Source: Patescibacteria group bacterium (GTDB lineage: Bacteria > Patescibacteriota > SICC01). From it: a DNA stretch of 64,000 nt. The notes beneath the pieces are model-generated. The model did no database searches. It had not been told where the DNA came from and saw only the letters and a program-made list of their open reading frames with translations. Position 1 is the first letter of the stretch, and every line of letters begins with the position of its first letter. This document shows positions 8,043 through 60,013 of this stretch, piece after piece. The DNA lies in assembly GCA_040902515.1 (NCBI GenBank), contig JBBDXB010000006.1, positions 335,814 to 399,813 of the forward strand. The letters are read 5' to 3'. A program made the translations under genes and the position numbers.

Positions 8043-8126
8043 TAAATCGCTAAGCAGTCAAGGGGTTGCGGTCAGCACATGGCTTGAGCCCGGTCAGCCG
8101 CGGCCATGCTCTGCTACCGTTAAGGC

Positions 8127-9665
8127 ATGATCGCCGTCCATAGTTTCGGCTCGCAGTTCACGCATCTGATCGCTCGGCGACTCCGGGCGCTGAACGTCCA
8201 CGCCGAGGTATTCGCACCGGACGTGCCGGCCAAGGAGCTCGCCGCCCGGAAACCGTCCGGCATCATCCTGTCCGGCGGCCCCGCCTCCGTGTCCGATCCT
8301 GGCGCACCGGGCGTGGATCCGGCGTTGTTCGAACTCGGCGTCCCGGTGCTCGGCATCTGTTACGGCGAGCAGCTGATGGTGAAGCTCCTCGGCGGCACGG
8401 TCGGGAAAGGCGAATCAGGACAGTACGGCAAGGAGACGGTGAAGAACGCCGCGGACGCCGGGACGCTCCTTGGGGGACTGCCGGACAAACATGTCGTCTG
8501 GTTTTCCCACGGCGACCAGGTCTCGAAGCTCCCCGACGGATTCCGGGCGATCGGCCGCACCGCCACCTGCGAGTTCGCGGCGATCGCCGATCCGGACCGC
8601 CGACTCTTCGGGCTCCAGTTCCATCCCGAAGTGGTGCATACCGAGTACGGCACCGACATCCTCCAGAACTTCGCGCTCAAGATCTGCGGCGACCCTGCCG
8701 ACTGGACCATCGGGCATGCGCGGGAAACGATTACCGCCGAACTCGTGAAGCAGCTCGGTACGGAGGGCGACGTGATCGTCGGCGTGTCCGGTGGCGTGGA
8801 CTCGATGGTCGCGGCGACGCTCCTGAACGAACTCATTCCGGACCGGCTCCATGCCGTGTTCGTGGATACCGGCCTGCTCCGCCAGGACGAGGCCGGGGAG
8901 GTCAGCACGGTCTTCGCCGAGCGGGGCTTCCGCGACTTCCGCCGCATCGACGCGGTGGACACGTTTCTCGGGAAGCTCGCCGGGGTCACCGACCCGGAAA
9001 AGAAACGGAAGATCATCGGGCACACGTTCATCGAACTATTCGAGGCGGAGGCCGAACAGATCGAAAAGGACGCGCCGGTCCGGTTCCTTGCGCAAGGCAC
9101 GATTTATCCCGACCGGATCGAATCGGCGCAGCCGTCCAAGCACGCCGCGAAGATCAAGAGTCACCACAACCTGACGCTGCCGGAGAAGCTGAGGCTCGAG
9201 ATCGTCGAGCCGCTGGGTGAGCTTTACAAGGACGAGGTCCGGGAGCTTGGTTTCCAGCTGGGTCTGCCGGCGCACCTCGTGGGACGACACCCGTTCCCCG
9301 GGCCGGGCCTCGCGATCCGGATCCTCGGTGACGTCACGCCGGAACGCGTCCGGACCCTCCAGGCCGCGGACGCGATCTACCAGCAGGAGCTGCGGACCAG
9401 CGGTGAGTACGACAAGATCTGGCAGGCGTTCGCGGCGCTGCTGCCGGTCAAGAGCGTCGGGGTGATGGGCGACGCTCGCACGTACGAAGACATCATCAGC
9501 CTGCGCGCGGTGAACTCGGTGGATGGCATGACCGCCGACTGGTACCGGTTCCCGCCGGAGGTGCTGGAGCGGGCCTCGTCGCGGATCGTCAACGAGGTGA
9601 CCGGCGTGAACCGCGTCCTCTATGACGTGACCCAGAAACCGCCGGGCACGATCGAGTACGAATAG
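8127..9665 (+). CDS. guaA: GMP synthase (glutamine-hydrolysing)
   Basis: N-terminal class-I glutamine amidotransferase domain, ATP-PPase SGGVDS motif and C-terminal dimerisation domain ending …GTIEYE. Confidence 0.95.
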   Translation: MIAVHSFGSQFTHLIARRLRALNVHAEVFAPDVPAKELAARKPSGIILSGGPASVSDPGAPGVDPALFELGVPVLGICYGEQLMVKLLGGTVGKGESGQYGKETVKNAADAGTLLGGLPDKHVVWFSHGDQVSKLPDGFRAIGRTATCEFAAIADPDRRLFGLQFHPEVVHTEYGTDILQNFALKICGDPADWTIGHARETITAELVKQLGTEGDVIVGVSGGVDSMVAATLLNELIPDRLHAVFVDTGLLRQDEAGEVSTVFAERGFRDFRRIDAVDTFLGKLAGVTDPEKKRKIIGHTFIELFEAEAEQIEKDAPVRFLAQGTIYPDRIESAQPSKHAAKIKSHHNLTLPEKLRLEIVEPLGELYKDEVRELGFQLGLPAHLVGRHPFPGPGLAIRILGDVTPERVRTLQAADAIYQQELRTSGEYDKIWQAFAALLPVKSVGVMGDARTYEDIISLRAVNSVDGMTADWYRFPPEVLERASSRIVNEVTGVNRVLYDVTQKPPGTIEYE

Positions 9666-11076: not shown

Positions 11077-11105
11077 TTGACAAAAACGTCTAAAAATGTT
11101 ATGGT
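11077..11105 (+). promoter_or_regulatory. sigma70-type promoter TTGACA-17-TATGGT upstream of pilB (very short leader)
   Basis: -35 at 11077-11082, -10 at 11100-11105. pilB ATG at 11118 leaves a leader of only about 5 nt. Confidence 0.5.
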
Positions 11106-11117
11106 TACGTAATTTCC

Positions 11118-13031
11118 ATGTCACATGAACTCACACCGCGGGAGCAGGCAAAGCTTGAGGACTTCGTCCGCAAGGGCTTGGGCGGTACCGCGGATACGCC
11201 GCCGTCTCCGAAGGACGAGACCGGTTCATCGCTTCGGGAACAGGACGAGGAACAGCGCGAGAAGCTGTCGCCCGTAAGCCCGTCGGTCAAGAGCAGCAAA
11301 CGGGTCGTGCAGGAGTCGGGCTCGGCACCCTCGAAGCAGAAGAAGGATGACGATGACGATATCGACCTGTTCGCCCGCGGCAACGTGAGTCGGGTGGTCG
11401 ATGAGTTCAGGGCCGAGAAAGTCGAGAAAGAGCAGCGGGCCGTCGCCAAGAAGGCCGGCCTGCCTTTCGTGCGGCTGATGGGATACCCGATCAGTCCGGA
11501 GGTGCTCGCCCTGATCCCACGGGAGATCGCCGAAAAGTACGGCGTGATCTCCTACATCAAGGTCGGCAACAAGGTGCGGGTCGGTGTCCGGCATCCCGGC
11601 ACGAAACAGACCGCGCAGGTACTGGAATCGCTCAACCGGGCGACGGACCATGACTACCTCGTGTCGGCGATCGGTGAGGATTCCTATCGTTACGCACTCA
11701 AGCTGTATGACGAACTGCCTGCGGCACGCGCAGCCACGTCGGATGTCTCCGTGGACGAGAAGGAAAAGAAATCGTTCGAGACGGACATCCAATCGTTCCT
11801 CGATCTCCGGTCCCGGATCAAGGACGTGCCGACCACCAAGGTCGTCGACACGCTCCTGACCGGCGCGGTAAAGGTGGGCGCCTCCGACGTCCACATCGAA
11901 CCGATGGAGGAGGGGGTACGGATCCGCTACCGGATCGACGGCGTGCTGCACACCGTTGCCGACTTCAAGACCGACATCCTGCAGAGCCTCCTATCCCGGC
12001 TGAAGTTCCTGGCCAAGCTCAAGCTGGACGTGAACCGCCTGCCGCAGGACGGCCGGTTCACGATCACGGACAAGCAGCAGGACCGGAGCGTCGAGCTCGA
12101 CGTCCGGGTGGCGACGATCCCTTCCCAATACGGCGAAGCGATCACCATGCGGCTCCTGAACCGCGATGCGACGGGTATCACGCTCGACGCGCTCGGCCTC
12201 ACCGGGGAAGCCCGCCGGAAGGTGCTGGCGGCGATCGATCGGCCGCAGGGCATGGTGCTGGAATGCGGTCCGACCGGTTCCGGTAAGACCACCACGCTCT
12301 ACTCGCTGCTCACGCGGCTCAACGATCCCGGCAAGAAACTCGTGACGCTGGAGGATCCGGTGGAGTACCGGCTGCCCGGCGTGATGCAGTCGCAGGTGGA
12401 TCCCGCCCACGGGTACGATTTCGCGGAAGGATTCCGCTCGGTCCTCCGGCTCGACCCCGACGTGCTGATGATCGGTGAGATCCGTGACAGCAAGACCGCC
12501 GACCAGGCGGTGCAGGCTTCCCTGACCGGCCACATCGTGCTCTCGACGCTGCATACCAACGATGCCCCGACCGCGATCCCGCGGCTTACGGACATCGGCG
12601 TCCGGCCGTTCCTGCTCGCCAACGCGATCAACGCGATCATCGCGCAGCGGCTGGTGCGGAAGATCTGCATCCATTGCGCGGCCGAGACCAAGCCGGACAC
12701 GGCCACACTCGAGGCGGTGCAGGAGGTGCTCAAGGCGTTGCCGGAACATGCCAAGGACAGCCTGCCGCCGAAGAAAGAATGGCTGTTCATGAAGGGCAAG
12801 GGCTGCGCGCAGTGCAACGGCACCGGCTTCTCCGGCCGCATCGGCATCTTCGAGGTGCTGGTGATCAGCGACGAGATCGAGCGGTTGGCGATGAACCGCG
12901 CGCCGATCAGCCAACTCCGGCAAGCGGCCCACCGGACGGGTATGATGACGATGGAACAGGACGGCTTGCTGAAGGCCTTGGCGGGCGTTACGACGATCAG
13001 CGAGGTCTGGCGGGTCGCACGTAACGTCTGA
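11118..13031 (+). CDS. pilB: type IV pilus / type II secretion assembly ATPase (GspE/PilB family) with ~120-aa disordered N-terminal extension
   Basis: Walker A GPTGSGKTT, Asp and His boxes, tetracysteine motif (CIHCAAE…CAQCNGTG), T2SSE N-terminal domain. Confidence 0.9.
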   Translation: MSHELTPREQAKLEDFVRKGLGGTADTPPSPKDETGSSLREQDEEQREKLSPVSPSVKSSKRVVQESGSAPSKQKKDDDDDIDLFARGNVSRVVDEFRAEKVEKEQRAVAKKAGLPFVRLMGYPISPEVLALIPREIAEKYGVISYIKVGNKVRVGVRHPGTKQTAQVLESLNRATDHDYLVSAIGEDSYRYALKLYDELPAARAATSDVSVDEKEKKSFETDIQSFLDLRSRIKDVPTTKVVDTLLTGAVKVGASDVHIEPMEEGVRIRYRIDGVLHTVADFKTDILQSLLSRLKFLAKLKLDVNRLPQDGRFTITDKQQDRSVELDVRVATIPSQYGEAITMRLLNRDATGITLDALGLTGEARRKVLAAIDRPQGMVLECGPTGSGKTTTLYSLLTRLNDPGKKLVTLEDPVEYRLPGVMQSQVDPAHGYDFAEGFRSVLRLDPDVLMIGEIRDSKTADQAVQASLTGHIVLSTLHTNDAPTAIPRLTDIGVRPFLLANAINAIIAQRLVRKICIHCAAETKPDTATLEAVQEVLKALPEHAKDSLPPKKEWLFMKGKGCAQCNGTGFSGRIGIFEVLVISDEIERLAMNRAPISQLRQAAHRTGMMTMEQDGLLKALAGVTTISEVWRVARNV

Positions 13032-38323: not shown

Positions 38324-38347
38324 CATAATCTTGCTACAATACCCCGG

Positions 38348-39913
38348 ATGGCACGAACCGCCCGGAAAATGCGACGGTTGCCCGGCTCCTTGCATAAGGT
38401 GCGGTTTTGGCCGGCCTTGGTAGCGGGTGTCGCACTGATTCTGCTCGGCATGTGGTTCTGGCTCGCGGTGATGCGCGCGTCGGTGAGCCAAGCGCTGCTG
38501 GCGGAACTTCCCCAGGACAGCCGGATTGCCGGGGTGGTCAAGCTTTCCGCGATCGACCTGGACACCATCGAACAGGTGAGCCAGTCGGCGAGCATCTATC
38601 CCGCGGGTGTCGAATCACTGGTCGCGACGCTCCGGGATGCGGCGCCGGCTGAACTGTTCGCCAAGGCGCTCGGACCGGAGGTCGCGTTCGCGGACGTACA
38701 CGGGCATTCTCTGGCCGTGGTGACGATCCGAGACCAGGCGTCGTTCGAGGAGCTCTCCGGAAAGGTCGGGGCACGGCTGGGGGAGCCGGGCATTTCCCAT
38801 GCGGAGTCAGCCGAGCGGGGCCGTGTGCCGTTCTTCAGCGCGAAGCTGGCGGAATCAGACCGGACCGTCTTCGCTTACCGCGAGGACGACCTGCTTTTCG
38901 TCGCGACGGATCCCGAGCCGATACTGGATGCGCTCGCCCAGCGGCAGGGGTTTGACGCGACCACGGCGTTCGAGGACGTTTCCGGAAGGTTGCCGGGCGG
39001 AGCGGACGCGTACGTCTTCCTGGACGGCCGCCTGGCGGACCGCTATCCCCGACTGGGATTCTCGCTGATCGGCGTGGCCATCCGTGACGAGGATGAACAC
39101 CTGCGCCTACAGGCGGTCAGCGCGGACCCGCCCGAGGTCAACGTATCATTACCCGCCGCTTCCGGCGGCCTGCTGCCCGCGCCCGAACAGGCGACGCTCG
39201 GCATATCCGGCACGAGCGTGCTCCGGTATCTCCAGCTGCTCGAAGCACAGCGCAGCGAACGGGCGCTTCCGGAGGTGATCAAGCTGCAGAACGGGATCGC
39301 GTCACTGAACCGTCGGCTCGGAGTTGACCTGGAGACGGACTATCTGGCCGCCGCTGACGGGCGGTTCACGTACGCGCGGTTTGCGGACGGGAAATCGCAA
39401 CGGTGGATGACGTTATTGGAGTTCGAGGGTCCGGAGGTGGCCCGTACCAAGGTCGAAAGCTTCGAGCAGCTGGCGCGCGAGAAACTGACCGTGCCAGTCC
39501 GTCGAGAAGTGGTCAAAGTGCTGCCGGATGGTTCCCGCTCACGCGAGATCGAATCGGAGAAGCAGGAGCGGCTGAAGTTCGGCGCGGTGGAGGTGGAAGA
39601 CCAGCCGGCCAAGGCGGTCAAGCTGCCGGAACTCGGCCGGATCGTCTGGCAGGTCCGTGACCGGTTCCTGCTGGTCGGTGACAGCGAACGGAGCGTTGCC
39701 CGCTTGGTCCGGACGATCCGGAAACCGACGGATACCGTCGATGGCGAAGGACAGCTTGCCGTCCGTCTGGATCTCTCGAAGGCCGGGACGTTGACTGGTG
39801 GCGAGGACGTGATTTTCAGTTGGATCCTGGCGACCCGTCCGGCAGAGGGCGAGCTCACCCTGGGCAAGGAGAGCGGCGTGCTTTCCGGATTCGTGACGTT
39901 CGCGGAGCGCTGA
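38348..39913 (+). CDS. hypothetical membrane-anchored protein (521 aa)
   Basis: N-terminal TM helix and a large extracytoplasmic domain. Stop overlaps the nfo start by 1 nt. Confidence 0.5.
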   Translation: MARTARKMRRLPGSLHKVRFWPALVAGVALILLGMWFWLAVMRASVSQALLAELPQDSRIAGVVKLSAIDLDTIEQVSQSASIYPAGVESLVATLRDAAPAELFAKALGPEVAFADVHGHSLAVVTIRDQASFEELSGKVGARLGEPGISHAESAERGRVPFFSAKLAESDRTVFAYREDDLLFVATDPEPILDALAQRQGFDATTAFEDVSGRLPGGADAYVFLDGRLADRYPRLGFSLIGVAIRDEDEHLRLQAVSADPPEVNVSLPAASGGLLPAPEQATLGISGTSVLRYLQLLEAQRSERALPEVIKLQNGIASLNRRLGVDLETDYLAAADGRFTYARFADGKSQRWMTLLEFEGPEVARTKVESFEQLAREKLTVPVRREVVKVLPDGSRSREIESEKQERLKFGAVEVEDQPAKAVKLPELGRIVWQVRDRFLLVGDSERSVARLVRTIRKPTDTVDGEGQLAVRLDLSKAGTLTGGEDVIFSWILATRPAEGELTLGKESGVLSGFVTFAER

Positions 39914-40806
39914 TGCGGCTCGGTGCGCACCTTTCGGTGGCCAAGGGGCTGCCCCACCTGTTGCAACAGGCCGACGATCTCGGCGCGACGGCGATCCAGA
40001 TCTTCGCCCGCAACCCCCGCGGTCGTGGGGAGACGAAGATATCGCCCGAGGATGCCGCCGCATTCCGTGCCGGCCTCAAGCGACGCAAGGCGAAGCTGTT
40101 CATCCATGCCCCGTATTACGTGCAGGTCGGTGCGAGCGATGCCCGGAACCGGCGGATCGCCGCGGAAGTCGCGGCCGCCGACCTGGTGAAAGGCGACCTA
40201 CTGGGAGCCGACGGTGTCGTCGTGCACTTCGGCGGCTCCGTCGACGCGGATGGTCCCGACGTAAGCACGGCGCATACGGTCAAGACCATCAAGGCGGCGT
40301 TCAAGAAGTCCGGCCCGACGAACTGCCGGCTGCTCCTCGAGATTTCGGCCAGCGACAAGCGGGTCGGCGGGACCTTCGAGCAGATCAGGAACATCCTGGA
40401 CGGCGTCGGTGAGCCGTCACGGGTCGGCGTCTGCCTCGACACGTGCCACCTGTATACCGCGGGATTCGATATCCGCGGGAGCGGCGCTACCAGGGTCCTC
40501 AACCGGTTCGCGAAAACGGTGGGGCTCCGGAAGCTGAAGGTGGTCCACCTGAACGATACCCAATCCGATCTCGGCCAGGGACTGGACCGGCACTTCCACA
40601 TCGGCCAAGGGCAGATCGGCGAGGCCGCGTTCCGGAACCTGCTCCGTGATTCCCGGCTGAGGAACATGGACTTCGTGTTGGAAACGCCGAAGGAGGGCTG
40701 GGGTGAAGCCACGCGCCTACCGAAAACCAAGGGCGCGCCATCGATCGACGCGGATGCCCGAAACCTGGCCACGCTCCGCCGGCTCGCCGGTACGGCCGCC
40801 CGCTGA
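39913..40806 (+). CDS. nfo: endonuclease IV (AP endonuclease)
   Basis: TIM-barrel xylose-isomerase-like fold with metal-binding His/Asp/Glu (IFARNPRG; HAPY; CLDTCH; VHLND). Confidence 0.9.
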   Translation: MRLGAHLSVAKGLPHLLQQADDLGATAIQIFARNPRGRGETKISPEDAAAFRAGLKRRKAKLFIHAPYYVQVGASDARNRRIAAEVAAADLVKGDLLGADGVVVHFGGSVDADGPDVSTAHTVKTIKAAFKKSGPTNCRLLLEISASDKRVGGTFEQIRNILDGVGEPSRVGVCLDTCHLYTAGFDIRGSGATRVLNRFAKTVGLRKLKVVHLNDTQSDLGQGLDRHFHIGQGQIGEAAFRNLLRDSRLRNMDFVLETPKEGWGEATRLPKTKGAPSIDADARNLATLRRLAGTAAR

Positions 40807-40818
40807 TACGCTAAGACC

Positions 40819-41265
40819 ATGGCGAGACAAAACACCAATCCGGTCCGGTCGAACCCGACCCATCCGGCGGCGTACGTGGCCTGGGCACAAGCGCTGGCCG
40901 CGACATCCGGCAGCCTCTACTTCAGCGAAGCCGCGGGATACCTGCCGTGCCTGCTCTGCTGGTACCAGCGGATCGCGATGTATCCGCTGGTCGTGATCCT
41001 GGCAGTCGGTATCCTGCGCCGGGACGCGAAGATGTACCAGTACGCCCTGCCGCTGGCGATCATCGGCGCTCTAGTCGCGCTATACCACGTACTGCTCTAC
41101 TACGGCGTGTTCCCCGAATCGGAACAGACCTGCCGGGCCGGGGTATCCTGTACGACCGAATACATCGAGTACCTGGGATTCATCACGATCCCGTTGCTCT
41201 CGCTGGTATCGTTCCTGGTAATTATCGGGTGCATGATGCTACTTTGGAAAGCGGCTAGGAGATGA
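40819..41265 (+). CDS. disulfide bond formation protein B (DsbB/BdbC-like)
   Basis: Four TM helices. Cys pairs CLLC and CRAGVSC in loops. Confidence 0.75.
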   Translation: MARQNTNPVRSNPTHPAAYVAWAQALAATSGSLYFSEAAGYLPCLLCWYQRIAMYPLVVILAVGILRRDAKMYQYALPLAIIGALVALYHVLLYYGVFPESEQTCRAGVSCTTEYIEYLGFITIPLLSLVSFLVIIGCMMLLWKAARR

Positions 41266-50650: not shown

Positions 50651-50676
50651 TAGCACTCACTAGTCATGAGTGCTAA
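50650..50676. promoter_or_regulatory. CIRCE operator (TTAGCACTC-N9-GAGTGCTAA), HrcA binding site
   Basis: Perfect match to the CIRCE consensus 13 nt upstream of the hrcA ATG. Confidence 0.9.
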
Positions 50677-50688
50677 AATGACAGCGAT

Positions 50689-51393
50689 ATGTTAAGTCCC
50701 CGTGAAACCCAGATCCTTCGTGCCATCGTGAACGAATACCTGCATTCGGCGCAGCCGGTCGGTTCACGCGTGCTCCGGGTGCGGTATGGTTTTGGCATTT
50801 CCCCGGCCACCATCCGTAACGCGATGGGTGTGCTCACGGAAGCCGGGTTCCTCGAGCAGCCGCACGTATCGGCTGGCCGGGTGCCGACCGACCGTGCGTT
50901 CCGGCTGGTCATGGAGAGCGCTTCCACGGCGGAACCGTCGCTCGCGGAGCAGCAGAAGCTGTCCGTGCGCCTGGAGAAGGCCGGGACGCCCGCACGGGCG
51001 ACCCGCAAGCTCGCCGAACAGCTGTCCGAGACCGCGGGAGCGGCCGGAATCCATCTCGACGAAGACGGCGTGCAGCTCTTCAACCTTGCCAACGTCTTCG
51101 GCCAGCCGGAGTTCGAGGATCCGCGCGTGGCATCGTACCTCGCGGAACTGTTGGACCGGGTGAAGGACTGGCTGCCGAAGCTGGCCTCCCGAGTGAACCA
51201 AGTGGGTGTGAAGATCGGCGCCGAGCATGAGGATTTCCGGGCCCGGGCCGTGGCGATGATGGGCCTCAAGGTGAAGCCGGCGGATACGTACGAAGCACGC
51301 ATCGGCGTGATCGGATCGACCCGCATGCCGTACCAGCGGCTGAGCCGGCTGTTCGATTACGGCAGGAAGGAGATGGCCCGTGTCTACGGATAA
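50689..51393 (+). CDS. hrcA: heat-inducible transcription repressor HrcA (short, 234 aa)
   Basis: N-terminal winged helix (LSPRETQILRAIVNEYLHSAQPVGSRVL…SPATIRNAMGVLTEAGFL). Sits in a CIRCE context. Confidence 0.85.
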   Translation: MLSPRETQILRAIVNEYLHSAQPVGSRVLRVRYGFGISPATIRNAMGVLTEAGFLEQPHVSAGRVPTDRAFRLVMESASTAEPSLAEQQKLSVRLEKAGTPARATRKLAEQLSETAGAAGIHLDEDGVQLFNLANVFGQPEFEDPRVASYLAELLDRVKDWLPKLASRVNQVGVKIGAEHEDFRARAVAMMGLKVKPADTYEARIGVIGSTRMPYQRLSRLFDYGRKEMARVYG

Positions 51394-52027
51394 GTCGAAG
51401 CGGGACGTACCGAAAGATCGGCAACCGGATGCCGGACGGGACCAGGACGGGAATCCGAAAGTGACGATCCGGAAGAAGGAGCGGCTGGAGCGGAAGCCCC
51501 CGAAGGGCTCCGACGAGCCGAAGGCGCGCCAGACCGGCGAAGCCGATACTCCGACGGACGGTTCCGCCGCCGACCGTTCCGGTGAGGCGGACGCGCTCAG
51601 GTCCCAGATGGCCCGGCTTCAGGCCGACTTCAGCAACTTTCGGCGGCGGACCGAGGAGGAGCGGTTGGAAGTGGCGGCATTGGCCCGCACCGACCTGGCG
51701 CTCAAGCTCCTGCCGGTGATCGATAACTTCGACCGCGCCGCGGAACATGTACCCGAGGCGGTCAAGGAAGACCCGTGGTACATGGGCATCGAAGGCATCC
51801 GGAAGCAGTTCGCGGACATGCTCGCGGAACTCGGGATCGAACGGATCGAGGCGGTCGGCCAGCCGTTCGACCCCGAGCTGCACGAGGCGTTATCGCACGA
51901 GCCGAGCGACGAGTTCGAGAAGGACGTCGCCTCGAAGGAGCTCGAAGCAGGTTACCGGATGGGCGACACGGTCGTCCGCCCGGCGAAAGTACAAGTATCA
52001 AGCGGAAAGGAGAAATCCCATGAGTAA
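51380..52027 (+). CDS. grpE: nucleotide exchange factor GrpE
   Basis: GrpE signature ([13 protein letters not shown]…; coiled-coil tail). Overlaps hrcA by 14 nt. Confidence 0.9.
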
Positions 52028-54032: not shown

Positions 54033-54048
54033 CCGAAGACGGAGCAAG

Positions 54049-54078
54049 CAGCCCGGCACCTCGCGAGGTGCCGGGCTG
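54049..54078 (+). terminator. 30-nt perfect palindrome (CAGCCCGGCACCTCG/CGAGGTGCCGGGCTG) 17 nt after the dnaK stop; U-tract-less terminator candidate
   Basis: Direct base-pair check gives 15 consecutive pairs. No downstream T-run. Confidence 0.45.
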
Positions 54079-54095
54079 CACGGTACGATGGTCGC

Positions 54096-54725
54096 ATGCG
54101 AATAGTACGCAAACTCGGAAACACCGCGGCACTCCTGGTAATCACCGGTGCCGTGCTGGGCATCGCCGGCTGCGACAGCAAGCCGGAACCCGCGCCGACC
54201 CCGGCGGTTTCCGAGACTCCCAGCCCGATCGACGAAGCCAAGGGCCGGTACACCGAGGCCCTGGAGCGTGCCAAGCAGTGGCAGGAGAACGCGGAGCTGG
54301 CCCGGGTGTATCGGCGCTTCAGCGGAACGCTGGCCCCGGCCGCCCCCACGCCGGCCATCTACGCATTCTCGTCGCTGGCCGAACCCCGATCGACGTTCGA
54401 GGTCGAGTTCCAGGGTGACGACGTATCCGACCGGACGGTCGAGAAGCAGCCGTTCGAACTGCTCTTCAATCCGATTGACGTGGCCGTCTGGAAGGTACCG
54501 CCGGACGAAGCGCTCCGAATCGCCGAGCAAGCGGGCGGCGAATCGTTCCGTGAAGCGCACCTGGCCGGGTACACAGTACTCCAGCAGCTCTCGAAGATGG
54601 GAGCCTACCCGCTCCAGTGGTACTTTCGGTACGAGACCGGAGATGGCAGCGACCTCCGGCTCGAGATCTACGTGAACGCGGACTCCGGAGGTGTGGACTT
54701 CAAGCGGGAAGTCAAACAGCCGTGA
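54096..54725 (+). CDS. hypothetical lipoprotein
   Basis: Signal peptide with lipobox LGIAG-C. Confidence 0.55.
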   Translation: MRIVRKLGNTAALLVITGAVLGIAGCDSKPEPAPTPAVSETPSPIDEAKGRYTEALERAKQWQENAELARVYRRFSGTLAPAAPTPAIYAFSSLAEPRSTFEVEFQGDDVSDRTVEKQPFELLFNPIDVAVWKVPPDEALRIAEQAGGESFREAHLAGYTVLQQLSKMGAYPLQWYFRYETGDGSDLRLEIYVNADSGGVDFKREVKQP

Positions 54726-54863
54726 GAATGGTAGACTGAACGTACTTTCAATGGGTACGCATCTACCAGCCTCGTAGCGCATACCACCGAGGAACTCATC
54801 ACCGAGATCCTCCGACGTTCCGGCCTGCCCCATTCCGAACTGCTCTCCGCCACGCCGACCCGC

Positions 54864-55286
54864 GTGGCGAAATCATACCGTGAGCTCTTGTCGGGCTATG
54901 GAGCGGACGTGGCCGGCCTGTCCCGGACGTTTCCGTCGGACGGTTTCGGAGGCGTGCTCATGATCGGGCCGATTCCGTTCAGCAGCCTCTGTCGGCATCA
55001 CTTCCTGCCGTTCACGGGCGAAGTCACGGTGCGATACATGCCGTCAGGTCGTGTCCTCGGGCTATCCAAGTTCTCCCGGGTCGTATCGGCCTTCGCCAGA
55101 CGTGTGCAGACCCAGGAGCGTCTGACCCAGCAGGTTTCCGACACACTCAAGGGTATCCTCGCACCCCGGGAGCTATCCGTCACCGTCACGGCGGAGCATT
55201 TCTGCATGCGGATGCGCGGCGTGCAGCAGGCAGGAGTACGGACCATGACCGTTGGGACCAGCAAGGAGGAACATGAAACGGCCTGA
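54864..55286 (+). CDS. folE: GTP cyclohydrolase I (FolE); annotated from GTG 54864 but homology continues in frame upstream to the stop at 54732 with no canonical start
   Basis: SLCRHHFLPF (Cys-His-His zinc site), QERLTQQ, HFCMRMRGV motifs. The upstream in-frame sequence encodes …EELITEILRRSGLPHSELLSATPTRVAK…, i.e. the conserved TP-x-RVAK helix. Confidence 0.75.
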   Translation: MAKSYRELLSGYGADVAGLSRTFPSDGFGGVLMIGPIPFSSLCRHHFLPFTGEVTVRYMPSGRVLGLSKFSRVVSAFARRVQTQERLTQQVSDTLKGILAPRELSVTVTAEHFCMRMRGVQQAGVRTMTVGTSKEEHETA

Positions 55287-55959
55287 TAATCATCCCGAGA
55301 CCGGCATACCGGCGGAACGAGCGCCGGAAACGGAGGTCCGCCGCGCGTTGGCAGAAGTCCGGGAGCGCGGCGGAGCATTCATACCGGGCTTTCTGGATGT
55401 GGCGGCGGTCGACGCGTTACGGGCGGAAGTGTCCGGGTCGGAATTCGAGTGGCAGGAGCAGCGGTATCTGAAAGCGGAACAACGGATCGCCAGCTACGTG
55501 GTGACCCCTCCGTTTGGCGGATATCCCCTATTGGAATCGGTCGGACGGCGGCTGACAGACGTTTACCGGACCGCGGAGCCGCCGATTACGGGGAGCGAAC
55601 GGTACGTGCCCGACCATGTGTCGGTCCATCGTTATCCGCCGGGGGACGTTGGCATTACGCCGCACTACGACGAGAAGCGCTACGGCTTTTTGGTTGCCTC
55701 ACTGACCCTGGAGGGATCGGCCACGTTCTCGATCGTCGAAGATCCGGATCCGAAGCGTACGCTTCCGGACGATCAGGTGCTCGCAGCGCGACTGCAAGCA
55801 CCGTTACTGGAAAGCTGGCAGACTGGCCCCGGGGATCTTGTCCTGCTGCGCGCACCTGGTTTCGACGGGGCTCCCGACGGACGGCCGCTTCATCAGGTAA
55901 GCGGTGGCAAGGACGGATTCCGGACGGCGCTGGTGTACCGGATGTCCGCGGGACAGTAG
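55273..55959 (+). CDS. putative Fe(II)/2-oxoglutarate-dependent oxygenase-fold protein (PhyH/P4H-like)
   Basis: AAGGAGG 3 nt upstream of ATG 55273, which lies inside the folE 3' end. Candidate H-x-D (PHYD)…H…R facial triad spacing. Confidence 0.45.
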   Translation: MKRPDNHPETGIPAERAPETEVRRALAEVRERGGAFIPGFLDVAAVDALRAEVSGSEFEWQEQRYLKAEQRIASYVVTPPFGGYPLLESVGRRLTDVYRTAEPPITGSERYVPDHVSVHRYPPGDVGITPHYDEKRYGFLVASLTLEGSATFSIVEDPDPKRTLPDDQVLAARLQAPLLESWQTGPGDLVLLRAPGFDGAPDGRPLHQVSGGKDGFRTALVYRMSAGQ

Positions 55960-59345: not shown

Positions 59346-59915
59346 TCAGCCGGGGAGCACACCGGGATACTCCCGGACATCGAACGGTCGCATCCCAAGT
59401 CCCTTGGCGGTTTCCAGGTGCGCGGGTCGTACGTCCACGAACGGCAGCCCTTCCCGTGGATGTTGGAGCCGCTCCGCGGAAAGCTTGAGGAGCCCCGGAT
59501 AGTCGCGGTTTTCGTCGAGTTCCGAGCCGATCACATGTACGTGCAGCAGCTCGTCGAGCTGATAGCGTTTCCGGAAGTGGCCCACGAAATCCGGCGTGGC
59601 ATCGGATACCAGTCCAAGCACATGCGTCGGTGATTGTACGCGGATCCGGCCGAGTACCGACTGCTCCATCTCTGCGCCGTTGATCGCGAACATAGACAGC
59701 GTATCGGTTTCCTCAAGCGCCAGCTTGAGCGCGATCCCTCCCCAGTGCTCGCTCTGGGTGATCTCGCCGCGGTCGTAGGCCGGCTTGGAGTCAGCGATCG
59801 CAGCGGCCACATCGTCTTCCGGACGTTCCAGCGCCTCGGCGATATCCTCCGCCTGCGACGTAAGGTCGTCGCGCACGATCACGGACAGGTCGTAGAGGAT
59901 GGTCGGTTTTTGCAT
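59346..59915 (-). CDS. putative HAD-like hydrolase (189 aa)
   Basis: C-terminal (F)VDVRPAHLETAKGLGM resembles HAD motif IV. Assignment is weak. Confidence 0.45.
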   Translation of the reverse strand: MQKPTILYDLSVIVRDDLTSQAEDIAEALERPEDDVAAAIADSKPAYDRGEITQSEHWGGIALKLALEETDTLSMFAINGAEMEQSVLGRIRVQSPTHVLGLVSDATPDFVGHFRKRYQLDELLHVHVIGSELDENRDYPGLLKLSAERLQHPREGLPFVDVRPAHLETAKGLGMRPFDVREYPGVLPG

Positions 59916-60013
59916 ACGAGCAGCATATCAGACCACCCAGGCGTGGATGCGGTGGGGAGGCTTGACAAACGGCTCTTTTTTAGCTATGCTTAGACAATTT
60001 TCTAGAAACCAAT

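Follow-up and report, generated by a model that had tools for sequence, protein, structure and literature searches.

The stretch of DNA analysed here (the window) comprises 64,000 nucleotides of a Patescibacteria group bacterium (GTDB lineage Bacteria; Patescibacteriota; SICC01), namely positions 335,814 to 399,813 of the forward strand of contig JBBDXB010000006.1 in assembly GCA_040902515.1. At 54771-55286 it carries a divergent folE, the gene for GTP cyclohydrolase I, preceded by an extended −10 box, a short leader and a leader open reading frame (ORF) in a different frame. Entry into the folE frame from the out-of-frame, 5'-proximal ATG of this leader ORF is clade-wide, conserved and non-canonical. 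The anatomy of the locus is conserved and independent of the assembly, the gene is under purifying selection, and the fold of the protein needs residues encoded upstream of GTG 54864, the start codon called by annotation programs in the window. The comparison set consisted of eight lineages, the window and seven related ones; "the window's lineage" denotes the window together with its sister species (L001/L010). The locus is organised as follows.

54729-54737, plus strand: extended −10 box TGGTAGACT (consensus TGnTAnnCT, with an invariant G directly after it), called by comparison
54744-54750, plus strand: predicted transcription start at A 54744 and 7-nt leader ACUUUCA without Shine-Dalgarno sequence, placed by spacing
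54751-54777, plus strand: leader ORF MGTHLPAS*, consisting of ATG, seven sense codons and TAG, in the +1 frame relative to folE
54771-54777, plus strand: junction CTC GTA G, with the folE-frame codons CTC at 54771 and GTA at 54774; GTA overlaps the TAG at 54775-54777
54771-55286, plus strand: folE, divergent GTP cyclohydrolase I, frame counted from the junction (the start would be 54751/54753 if a −1 slip directly after the leader ATG were true)

Reading frame and product of folE

The folE frame is closed by a TAG at 54732-54734 and open from 54735 onwards, with the translation TERTFNGYASTSLVAHTTEELITEILRRSGLPHSELLSATPTRVAK..., and ATG, GTG and TTG are all absent from it between 54735 and GTG 54864. 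Translation of the frame thereby bears out a sequence-only reading of the window, made before any database search, which had seen no canonical start in this frame upstream of that GTG. The same reading had correctly placed ATG 54751 in the +1 frame, where it reads MGTHLPAS and meets the TAG at 54775-54777 after eight codons. At the frequency of start-type codons in this genome (5.9%), a run of 43 codons without one has a probability of about 0.07 and is, by itself, only mildly unusual. The observation is real because FolE homology, which begins at about 54786, and fold reach upstream of the first canonical start.

The Pfam profile GTP_cyclohydroI (PF01227) matches residues 19-176 of the translation with 167.5 bits (cut-off 27), covering profile positions 2-161 of 179; residue 19 (GAG 54789) corresponds to profile position 2. 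FolE chains in the PDB are matched at E 3e-33, and the solved structures align from the same GAG. An AlphaFold model was built from a 24-sequence alignment (mean predicted local distance difference test score, pLDDT, 89.5), with residues numbered from GGG 54753. It showed a disordered tail (residues 1-10), helix 1 at residues 12-22 (54786-54818) and helix 2 at residues 34-45 (54852-54887). GTG 54864 encodes Val38 within helix 2, directly after the family-invariant Thr34, Pro35 and Arg37. The sequence-only reading had taken this GTG for an internal Val codon of FolE and the N-terminus for being encoded upstream of it, in agreement with its position after Thr-Pro-x-Arg, the Pfam match from GAG 54789 and the location of helix 1. 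We take Arg37 to be the counterpart of E. coli FolE Arg65, which binds the GTP triphosphate. Judged by the model, a product begun at GTG 54864 would lack helix 1 as well as Thr34, Pro35 and Arg37.

In the 24-sequence alignment C80, H82, H83, H149, C151, Q121, E122, S105 and K106 are invariant, and the zinc and catalytic motifs C-x-H-H, H-x-C, Q-E-R and G-L-S-K are all present in this FolE. The segment from Cys to His-His (54987-55001) reads CRHH in the window and CQHH in the relatives, the usual form being CEHH. Scores stayed below the NCBIfam cut-offs for FolE (TIGR00063, 143.1 versus 181.6; NF006825, 157.2 versus 174), and the C-terminal helix is missing in the whole clade, the Pfam match stopping at position 161 of 179 (3' end of folE, about 55240-55286). 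The protein belongs to a divergent subfamily, presumably with GTP cyclohydrolase activity. At two related loci (L004 and L006) folE is followed by a GATase gene (PF00117) and a chorismate-binding gene (PF00425), which are pabA/pabB-like; these neighbours link this FolE to folate synthesis.

The start of the gene is annotated in conflicting ways. Prodigal-type callers choose GTG 54864 in the window, and the equivalents of this codon are called in relatives, where the products start with "MADSYREL" (P0001, P0005, P0006 and P0007). The identical sequence is annotated by NCBI from another codon.

54798-54800, plus strand: ATC, start in the NCBI annotation of the identical sequence (MEX2209853.1); P0233 = M-TEILRRSG; L048 position 1340

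ATC 54798 lies inside helix 1, the sister species has GTC in its place, and a conserved start there is unlikely. The NCBI start in GCA_040900285.1 is the junction CTG, and in other clade members callers choose a TTG, another GTG or an internal ATG. None of the called starts (GTG 54864, ATC 54798, CTG, TTG) is supported. In practice each annotation pipeline mis-calls this folE differently: most of the clade's database entries are cut short at the N-terminus, without helix 1, and the shortest calls (GTG 54864 or its equivalent, internal ATG) also lack the conserved T-P-x-R.

Conservation of the locus and its 5' region

Over 2.8-3.8 kb the window is 100% identical to GCA_040903945.1 (an NCBI contig of a metagenome-assembled genome, MAG) and to the Logan assemblies SRR27977660 and SRR27977661. 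The ATG is likewise +1 out of frame with folE in seven related lineages, Candidatus Saccharibacteria / Saccharimonadia MAGs with 57-92% protein identity to the window. The seven corresponding protein clusters came from 5.8 billion proteins, and all their loci share the layout. A profile search of the 5.8 billion proteins gave no clade members beyond these seven, JGI metagenomes contained no match above 46% identity, and the three clade loci in GTDB genomes all belong to lineages already found. A profile search with the N-terminal segment returned nothing, and no new 5' variants were seen among the cluster members examined at the DNA level. FolE genes at greater distance (≤46% identity) begin with an ordinary ATG. 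The sequence-only reading had left room for an assembly or sequencing error, that is, for a single base lost or gained somewhere between ATG 54751 and the body of the gene. Nothing but the frame offset itself speaks for such an error, which is refuted by the three identical assemblies and by the same offset in seven lineages; its probability is negligible. The alignment of orthologs, named by that reading as its own refutation test, revealed no relative in which ATG 54751 is in frame.

The folE gene is under purifying selection and alive in the window's lineage. Comparison of the window with L001 gave a ratio of non-synonymous to synonymous substitution rates (dN/dS) of 0.29, with 19 synonymous and 16 non-synonymous changes, where neutrality predicts about 27% synonymous ones. 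The segment 54771-54863 differs between window and sister species by three synonymous and two Ile-to-Val changes, without stop or indel, and the folE ORF is intact in 8/8 lineages. The synonymous excess, the intact ORF and a "defect" that is shared and conserved in relatives are not what a pseudogene would show, and a recent indel or pseudogene, also considered in the sequence-only reading, is refuted by the offset common to seven lineages together with this dN/dS. From that interpretation the choice between a change of frame and non-canonical initiation stands; it contained neither the conserved short leader ORF headed by ATG 54751 nor the conserved promoter in front of it.

For similar reasons we regard it as very unlikely that the gene is decaying in the window's lineage, or that a truncated product is made from GTG 54864 with the upstream homology as a relic. 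Such a view could invoke the loss of the junction CTG in this lineage, a folE dN/dS above that of the neighbouring gene (0.29 versus 0.04) and the preference of Prodigal-type callers for the GTG. Against it, dN/dS is clearly below 1 (19 of the 35 changes are synonymous), 54771-54863 has acquired neither stop nor indel, and 54732-54797 is identical in the sister species. GTG 54864 itself is situated in helix 2 after the invariant T-P-x-R, has no Shine-Dalgarno sequence, lies in the 3' arm of a stable hairpin, and is an internal Val codon in all relatives.

In the −10 box, TG, TA and CT are invariant in 8/8 lineages amid hypervariable flanks, and the box is kept whether the upstream gene is co-directional or divergent. 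A −35/−10 consensus scanner detected no classical promoter and no intrinsic terminator in 54500-55400; the promoter at 54729-54737 is a comparative call and therefore a prediction. The pattern TGNTANNNT-N6-ATG occurs three times in the window, where 0.2 matches are expected, and each match heads a long ORF (8127, 40819 and, on the minus strand, 59915); with 7 or 9 nt to the ATG, the box also heads the ORFs at 38348 and 50689. The TGnTAnnCT box thus appears to be a promoter type of this organism.

The predicted transcription start is A 54744, 6 nt past the box; at that spacing the window's predicted leaderless genes carry the first base of their ATG. In the alignment of the eight lineages, five variable bases separate the box (with its G) from the leader, which is followed by ATG 54751, the first AUG of the predicted transcript. 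Across the clade ACTTTCAATGGG (ACTTTC(A/G)ATGGG) required one Fitch step in 12 columns, and the leader is predicted to be unpaired in all lineages. The distance from box to ATG is 13 nt in all lineages as opposed to 6-7 nt in the leaderless genes of the window, which sets the predicted folE transcript apart from a leaderless mRNA. The triplets ACT TTC AAT are conserved as nucleotides and not as codons because they show no synonymous variation. Between window and sister species there are zero differences over 54732-54797, at 92.4% identity of the loci (P about 0.005); promoter, leader, leader ORF and junction are therefore constrained in the window's lineage too.

Other explanations of the conserved start region were discarded. 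An operator palindrome at the start site was rejected, only its right half (ACTTTC) being conserved. Leaderless initiation on the 5'-terminal ACU, in the folE frame, is mechanistically implausible, and transcriptional slippage that adds a G in the GGG run is unlikely for a run of 3 nt.

The leader ORF has seven codons and a TGA stop in six relatives, and eight codons and a TAG stop in the window and its sister. Its peptide is unconserved beyond MGT across lineages. Stops in the leader frame are rare inside folE (25 of 1304 codons, 1.9%), the next ones occurring at codons 32-125; in six lineages the leader ORF nonetheless stops at codon 8, and where the window's lineage lost the TGA it stops at codon 9 (TAG). 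At the junction, CTC-GTAG aligns with CTGA of the six relatives, in which the folE-frame CTG overlaps the TGA. The Met of a shorter homologue (P0008) aligns at the same place, and in the AlphaFold model the junction precedes helix 1 by 4-5 residues. Between ATGGG and the junction lie 15 fast-evolving, A/C-rich bases, which seem to evolve at about the neutral rate; as a test for coding between GGG and the junction, their Fitch steps by codon position (11/6/9) were uninformative. From the junction on, a coding pattern is found, with 16/19/40 steps up to GTG and 105/78/203 beyond. The stop of the leader ORF coincides with the onset of constraint in the folE frame. Because ATG, promoter distance and leader are invariant, the peptide is variable and the stop position is kept, these data suggest that translation and termination of the leader ORF matter, and not its peptide.

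Two RNA structures were found in the region.

54848-54869, plus strand: invariant hairpin CGCCACGC-N6-GCGUGGCG with an 8-bp stem, containing the mis-called GTG 54864
54753-54830, plus strand: possible long-range helices 54753-54760:54823-54830 and 54790-54795:54817-54822 (RNAalifold)

The hairpin has a pairing probability of about 1 and spans the codons A-T-P-x-R-V-A. Its stem codons are invariant at synonymous sites (5/5 in the eight lineages), whereas the Pro codon in the loop has four variants; among degenerate codons with an invariant amino acid the background of invariant codons is 26%. In this class of codons, 9/18 are invariant in the first 100 nt of the coding region versus 11/59 downstream. 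The long-range helices show some covariation (U-A, C-G, U-G) and are mismatched in two lineages, and their score was reached by 5/500 shuffles. When the sequences were folded singly, the outer helix (54753-54760:54823-54830) reached a probability of 0.83-0.96 in four lineages but about 0 in L002, L006 and the window; for the window's lineage the predicted pairing shifts register to AAUGGG:CCCAUU. With n = 8 sequences the long-range helices are suggestive only, and pairing just after the AUG could gate access to the leader ATG. Rfam 15 gave no relevant match at E up to 10 in 54500-55100, nor at E up to 5 in the seven related loci.

The gene upstream of folE (54096-54725) lies between dnaK and folE in most lineages and encodes a 209-aa protein without Pfam match, which is very strongly conserved (dN/dS 0.04 versus the sister species). 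Its stop, TGA 54723, falls in the folE frame and lies two codons ahead of the TAG that the −10 box contains. Read-through from this upstream ORF into folE is implausible, TGA 54723 and TAG 54732 both intervening in frame; it is also disfavoured by the divergent orientation of the upstream gene in L002, L004 and L009.

Possible routes into the folE frame

Our leading interpretation, held tentatively and at somewhat less than an even chance, is that folE of this Saccharimonadia clade is translated via the conserved leader ORF by termination-reinitiation in −4 geometry. The extended −10 promoter (54729-54737) would give rise to an mRNA that starts near A 54744 and has a 7-nt leader without Shine-Dalgarno sequence. 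Ribosomes would load at the 5'-proximal ATG 54751, as the start habits of other genes in this genome suggest, translate the eight-codon leader ORF and terminate at the TAG 54775-54777. A fraction of the terminated ribosomes would remain on the mRNA and begin again in the folE frame, on a codon that overlaps the stop by two bases, the −4 geometry of translational coupling at NTGA. This restart codon would be CUG (in CUGA) in the six related lineages and GUA (in GUAG, after CUC) in the window's lineage. The restart would be weak because neither CUG nor GUA is AUG, GUG or UUG, and it would thereby hold FolE output low; RNA pairing just after the AUG may tune it.

This interpretation draws on the single layout found in eight lineages from independent assemblies and on the use of 5'-end ATGs and NTGA overlaps elsewhere in the genome. 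Also in its favour are the invariance of the box and of ACTTTCAATGGG, the fixed stop position, the unconstrained leader peptide with a coding pattern from the junction on, and the match of the junction to the N-terminus of P0008. A precedent is provided by M. tuberculosis ppe2, where an upstream ORF (uORF) serves as a "landing pad" and termination-reinitiation takes place at AUGA (Kipkorir et al. 2024, PMC11260477). Of all coupling geometries, the −4 NTGA overlap is the most frequent (PMC12548453), and in E. coli CUG and AUC initiate at about 1-2% of AUG (bioRxiv 10.1101/063800).

Several observations weigh against it. In the overlap of stop and restart codon, the six relatives have CTGA with the near-cognate CTG, whereas the window has CTC-GTAG, which contains no recognised start: the window's lineage carries CTC for CTG and GTA over the stop, and yet folE remains under purifying selection. 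No bacterial precedent was found for restart on a GUA/CUC-type codon. Over the eight lineages the junction codon is only CTG or CTC and never ATG, GTG or TTG, the pattern of an internal Leu codon and not of a start. Reinitiation would not require the invariance of GGG after the ATG, which would have to be ascribed to a weakly supported RNA helix. Finally, where transcription starts, whether the leader ORF is translated and where the protein begins are all matters of prediction.

The main rival is a −1 frameshift at codon 2. According to this programmed or compensatory shift, translation would start at ATG 54751, and the peptidyl-tRNA-Gly would slip from GGU to GGG after the first translocation.

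54753-54756, plus strand: G_GGT, candidate −1 slip site (GGT 54754-54756 to GGG 54753-54755), relevant only to the frameshift alternative

The product would be M-G-Y-A-S-T-S-L-V-A-H-T-T-E-E-L..., with an eight-codon peptide from ribosomes that do not shift. ATGGGY is invariant in 8/8 lineages, and the first two anticodon positions can re-pair. A slip needs no start codon in the folE frame, CTG to CTC becomes a harmless synonymous Leu change, and both the CTG/CTC-only variation and the continued purifying selection fit. The folE frame is, moreover, open from the −10 box onward in every lineage, and synonymous folE-frame changes occur between GGG and the junction (GCA/GCG, CAC/CAT, ACC/ACG/ACA). 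We nevertheless consider the slip unlikely. The slippery-site test revealed no X_XXY_YYZ heptamer, and the G_GGT tetramer, though invariant, belongs to a class (G_GGN) for which little or no −1 shifting is reported in E. coli, even when a strong pseudoknot is present (PMC4066793). Stimulators are likewise missing: the 7-nt leader offers no upstream Shine-Dalgarno sequence, and no conserved structure lies 5-9 nt downstream, none starting at 54761-54766; of the predicted helices, one set of pairs includes the slip site and the other begins only at 54790. No coding signature is seen in the 15 nt that follow GGG (11/6/9 steps), and the position of the leader-ORF stop at the junction is left unexplained.

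That stop position would be explained, again without a start codon, if ribosomes shifted by −1 at the stop of the leader ORF with no release of the peptide ("shifty stop"). The result would be the fusion MGTHLPAS-VAHTTEEL..., the first folE-frame codon read being the one that overlaps the stop, GUA here and CUG in the relatives. A minor frameshifted uORF-PPE2 fusion is made at the mycobacterial AUGA overlap (PMC11260477), but it is only a minor product there. For none of the lineages, moreover, does the codon in the −1 frame allow the P-site tRNA to pair again (UCG to CUC in the window; AGC to AAG, CGC to ACG, GGC to AGG and ACC to CAC in the relatives), and we rate this route as quite improbable.

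Direct near-cognate initiation independent of the leader ORF, at ATC 54798, at CTG 54825 or, in the relatives, at the junction CTG, would make the ATG-led ORF a decoy or irrelevant. The NCBI annotations (ATC here, CTG in GCA_040900285.1) and the activity of AUC and CUG in E. coli mentioned above can be cited in its favour. None of the candidates, however, has a Shine-Dalgarno sequence upstream, ATC 54798 is GTC in the sister species and falls inside helix 1, and this reading would offer no explanation for the ATG, the invariance of the leader or the conservation of the stop position. Its probability is low, in our judgement.

This is not a new kind of system; it is either coupling of a leader ORF to a non-AUG codon or an atypical frameshift. 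The stronger proposition that folE is expressed only via obligatory recoding without a known signal, be it restart on GUA/CUC or a −1 slip on AUG_GGY, we regard as somewhat unlikely.

Genome context and relation to known systems

Predicted leaderless ORFs, with the ATG 6-9 nt after a TGnTAnnnT box, are found in the window at 8112-8129, 38332-38350, 40804-40821, 50671-50691 and 59913-59930 (minus strand), and strong GGAGG-type Shine-Dalgarno sequences precede dnaK (52020) and the gene at 55273. Leaderless-type and Shine-Dalgarno genes are both present, and the genome therefore mixes both modes of initiation. Leaderless or near-leaderless initiation at a 5'-proximal ATG would accordingly seem normal in this genome. 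A 637-aa ORF at 11118 has the same promoter type (box region 11103-11120) with a predicted 6-nt leader, ATTTCC; short U/C-rich leaders (ATTTCC, folE ACTTTCA) may recur. Five pairs of co-directional ORFs overlap by the 4 nt of an NTGA (41262 ATGA, 42397 TTGA, 21990 ATGA, 37622 GTGA and 28697 ATGA), which is consistent with frequent translational coupling in the genome.

Among the neighbours of folE, dnaK is directly followed by an inverted repeat whose 14-bp arms match perfectly around a loop of 4 nt (GCAGCCCGGCACCTCGCGAGGTGCCGGGCTGC, 54048-54079). The repeat is terminator-like but has no T-run, so that a terminator scanner would miss it. As listed, the dnaK ORF extends 91 codons (51747-52019) upstream of the conserved start ATG 52020, which is preceded by AAAGGAG; this long form overlaps the ORF 51380-52027, which occupies the position of grpE in the related locus L002, and it is an artefact of ORF listing. 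Downstream, a 228-aa gene without Pfam match starts at ATG 55273, 14 nt before the folE stop (region 55263-55959), with an AAGGAGG upstream that is located inside folE. In L002, folE is followed by two unannotated small genes.

One close likeness is to M. tuberculosis uPPE2/ppe2, in which a main ORF without a ribosome-binding site of its own receives its ribosomes through translation of a short upstream ORF, as we propose for folE; stop and restart codon overlap there by two bases in −4 geometry, as the leader-ORF stop and the proposed restart codon of folE would. The ppe2 restart is an AUG behind a long leader with a B12 riboswitch, whereas folE would restart on CUG/GUA, has a leader of about 7 nt, and no riboswitch was detected. 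The ppe2 mechanism is experimental; its folE counterpart is a prediction. The same geometry characterises NTGA (−4) gene coupling (Huber et al. 2019, PMC6728339; review PMC12548453), but the partner of folE is an ORF of 7-8 codons and not a gene, and the overlap is CTGA or GTAG. In most bacterial groups surveyed, a Shine-Dalgarno sequence precedes the downstream start in most overlapping pairs (PMC6728339); unlike in those NTGA pairs, there is none at the folE junction.

With programmed frameshifting in chromosomal genes (prfB +1, dnaX −1; review PMC5009743) folE shares the conserved offset between ATG and ORF and a homopolymeric G_GGY where, on the frameshift reading, the frame would have to change; "compensatory" frameshifts, made on the very run in which an indel occurred, form a recognised class (PMC4066793; PMC5009743). 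It differs from prfB and dnaX in having no heptamer and no stimulator at canonical spacing, and the shift would take place at codon 2. Conserved 5' elements of folE with possible helices and an excess of synonymous-site conservation also recall the THF-I, THF-II (folE motif) and preQ1 riboswitches; unlike these, the present element has no Rfam match in any lineage, and its candidate helices lie inside the coding sequence.

The AUU start of infC is a near-cognate start that limits expression. A weak non-AUG start on a low-level gene, as proposed for folE, would resemble this and other near-cognate starts (CUG/AUC), but those genes carry a Shine-Dalgarno sequence and do not depend on a leader ORF, and the window's lineage keeps no recognised near-cognate codon at the junction. 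Finally, an ATG near the 5' end as entry signal and an extended −10 promoter are shared with the leaderless and short-leader mRNAs of Actinobacteria as described by Shell et al. 2015 (as cited in PMC11260477) and in a review (PMC9031893), and the folE genome too has several predicted leaderless genes. In contrast to the actinobacterial leaderless ORFs as these accounts present them, the folE ATG is predicted at +8 and not at +1, and is out of frame with the gene.

In the uncultured Saccharibacteria this locus is a concrete, conserved case of an ordinary metabolic gene without a usable start codon, whose frame has to be reached by way of a leader ATG in another frame. From it one could learn to what extent these bacteria differ in start-codon rules, translational coupling or the maintenance of frame. 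If obligatory recoding were true, bacteria with reduced genomes would set the frame from a 5'-proximal AUG by rules undescribed in model organisms. If FolE is deliberately kept very low or regulated, the arrangement has a bearing on the question whether pterins and folate are made by these epibionts themselves.

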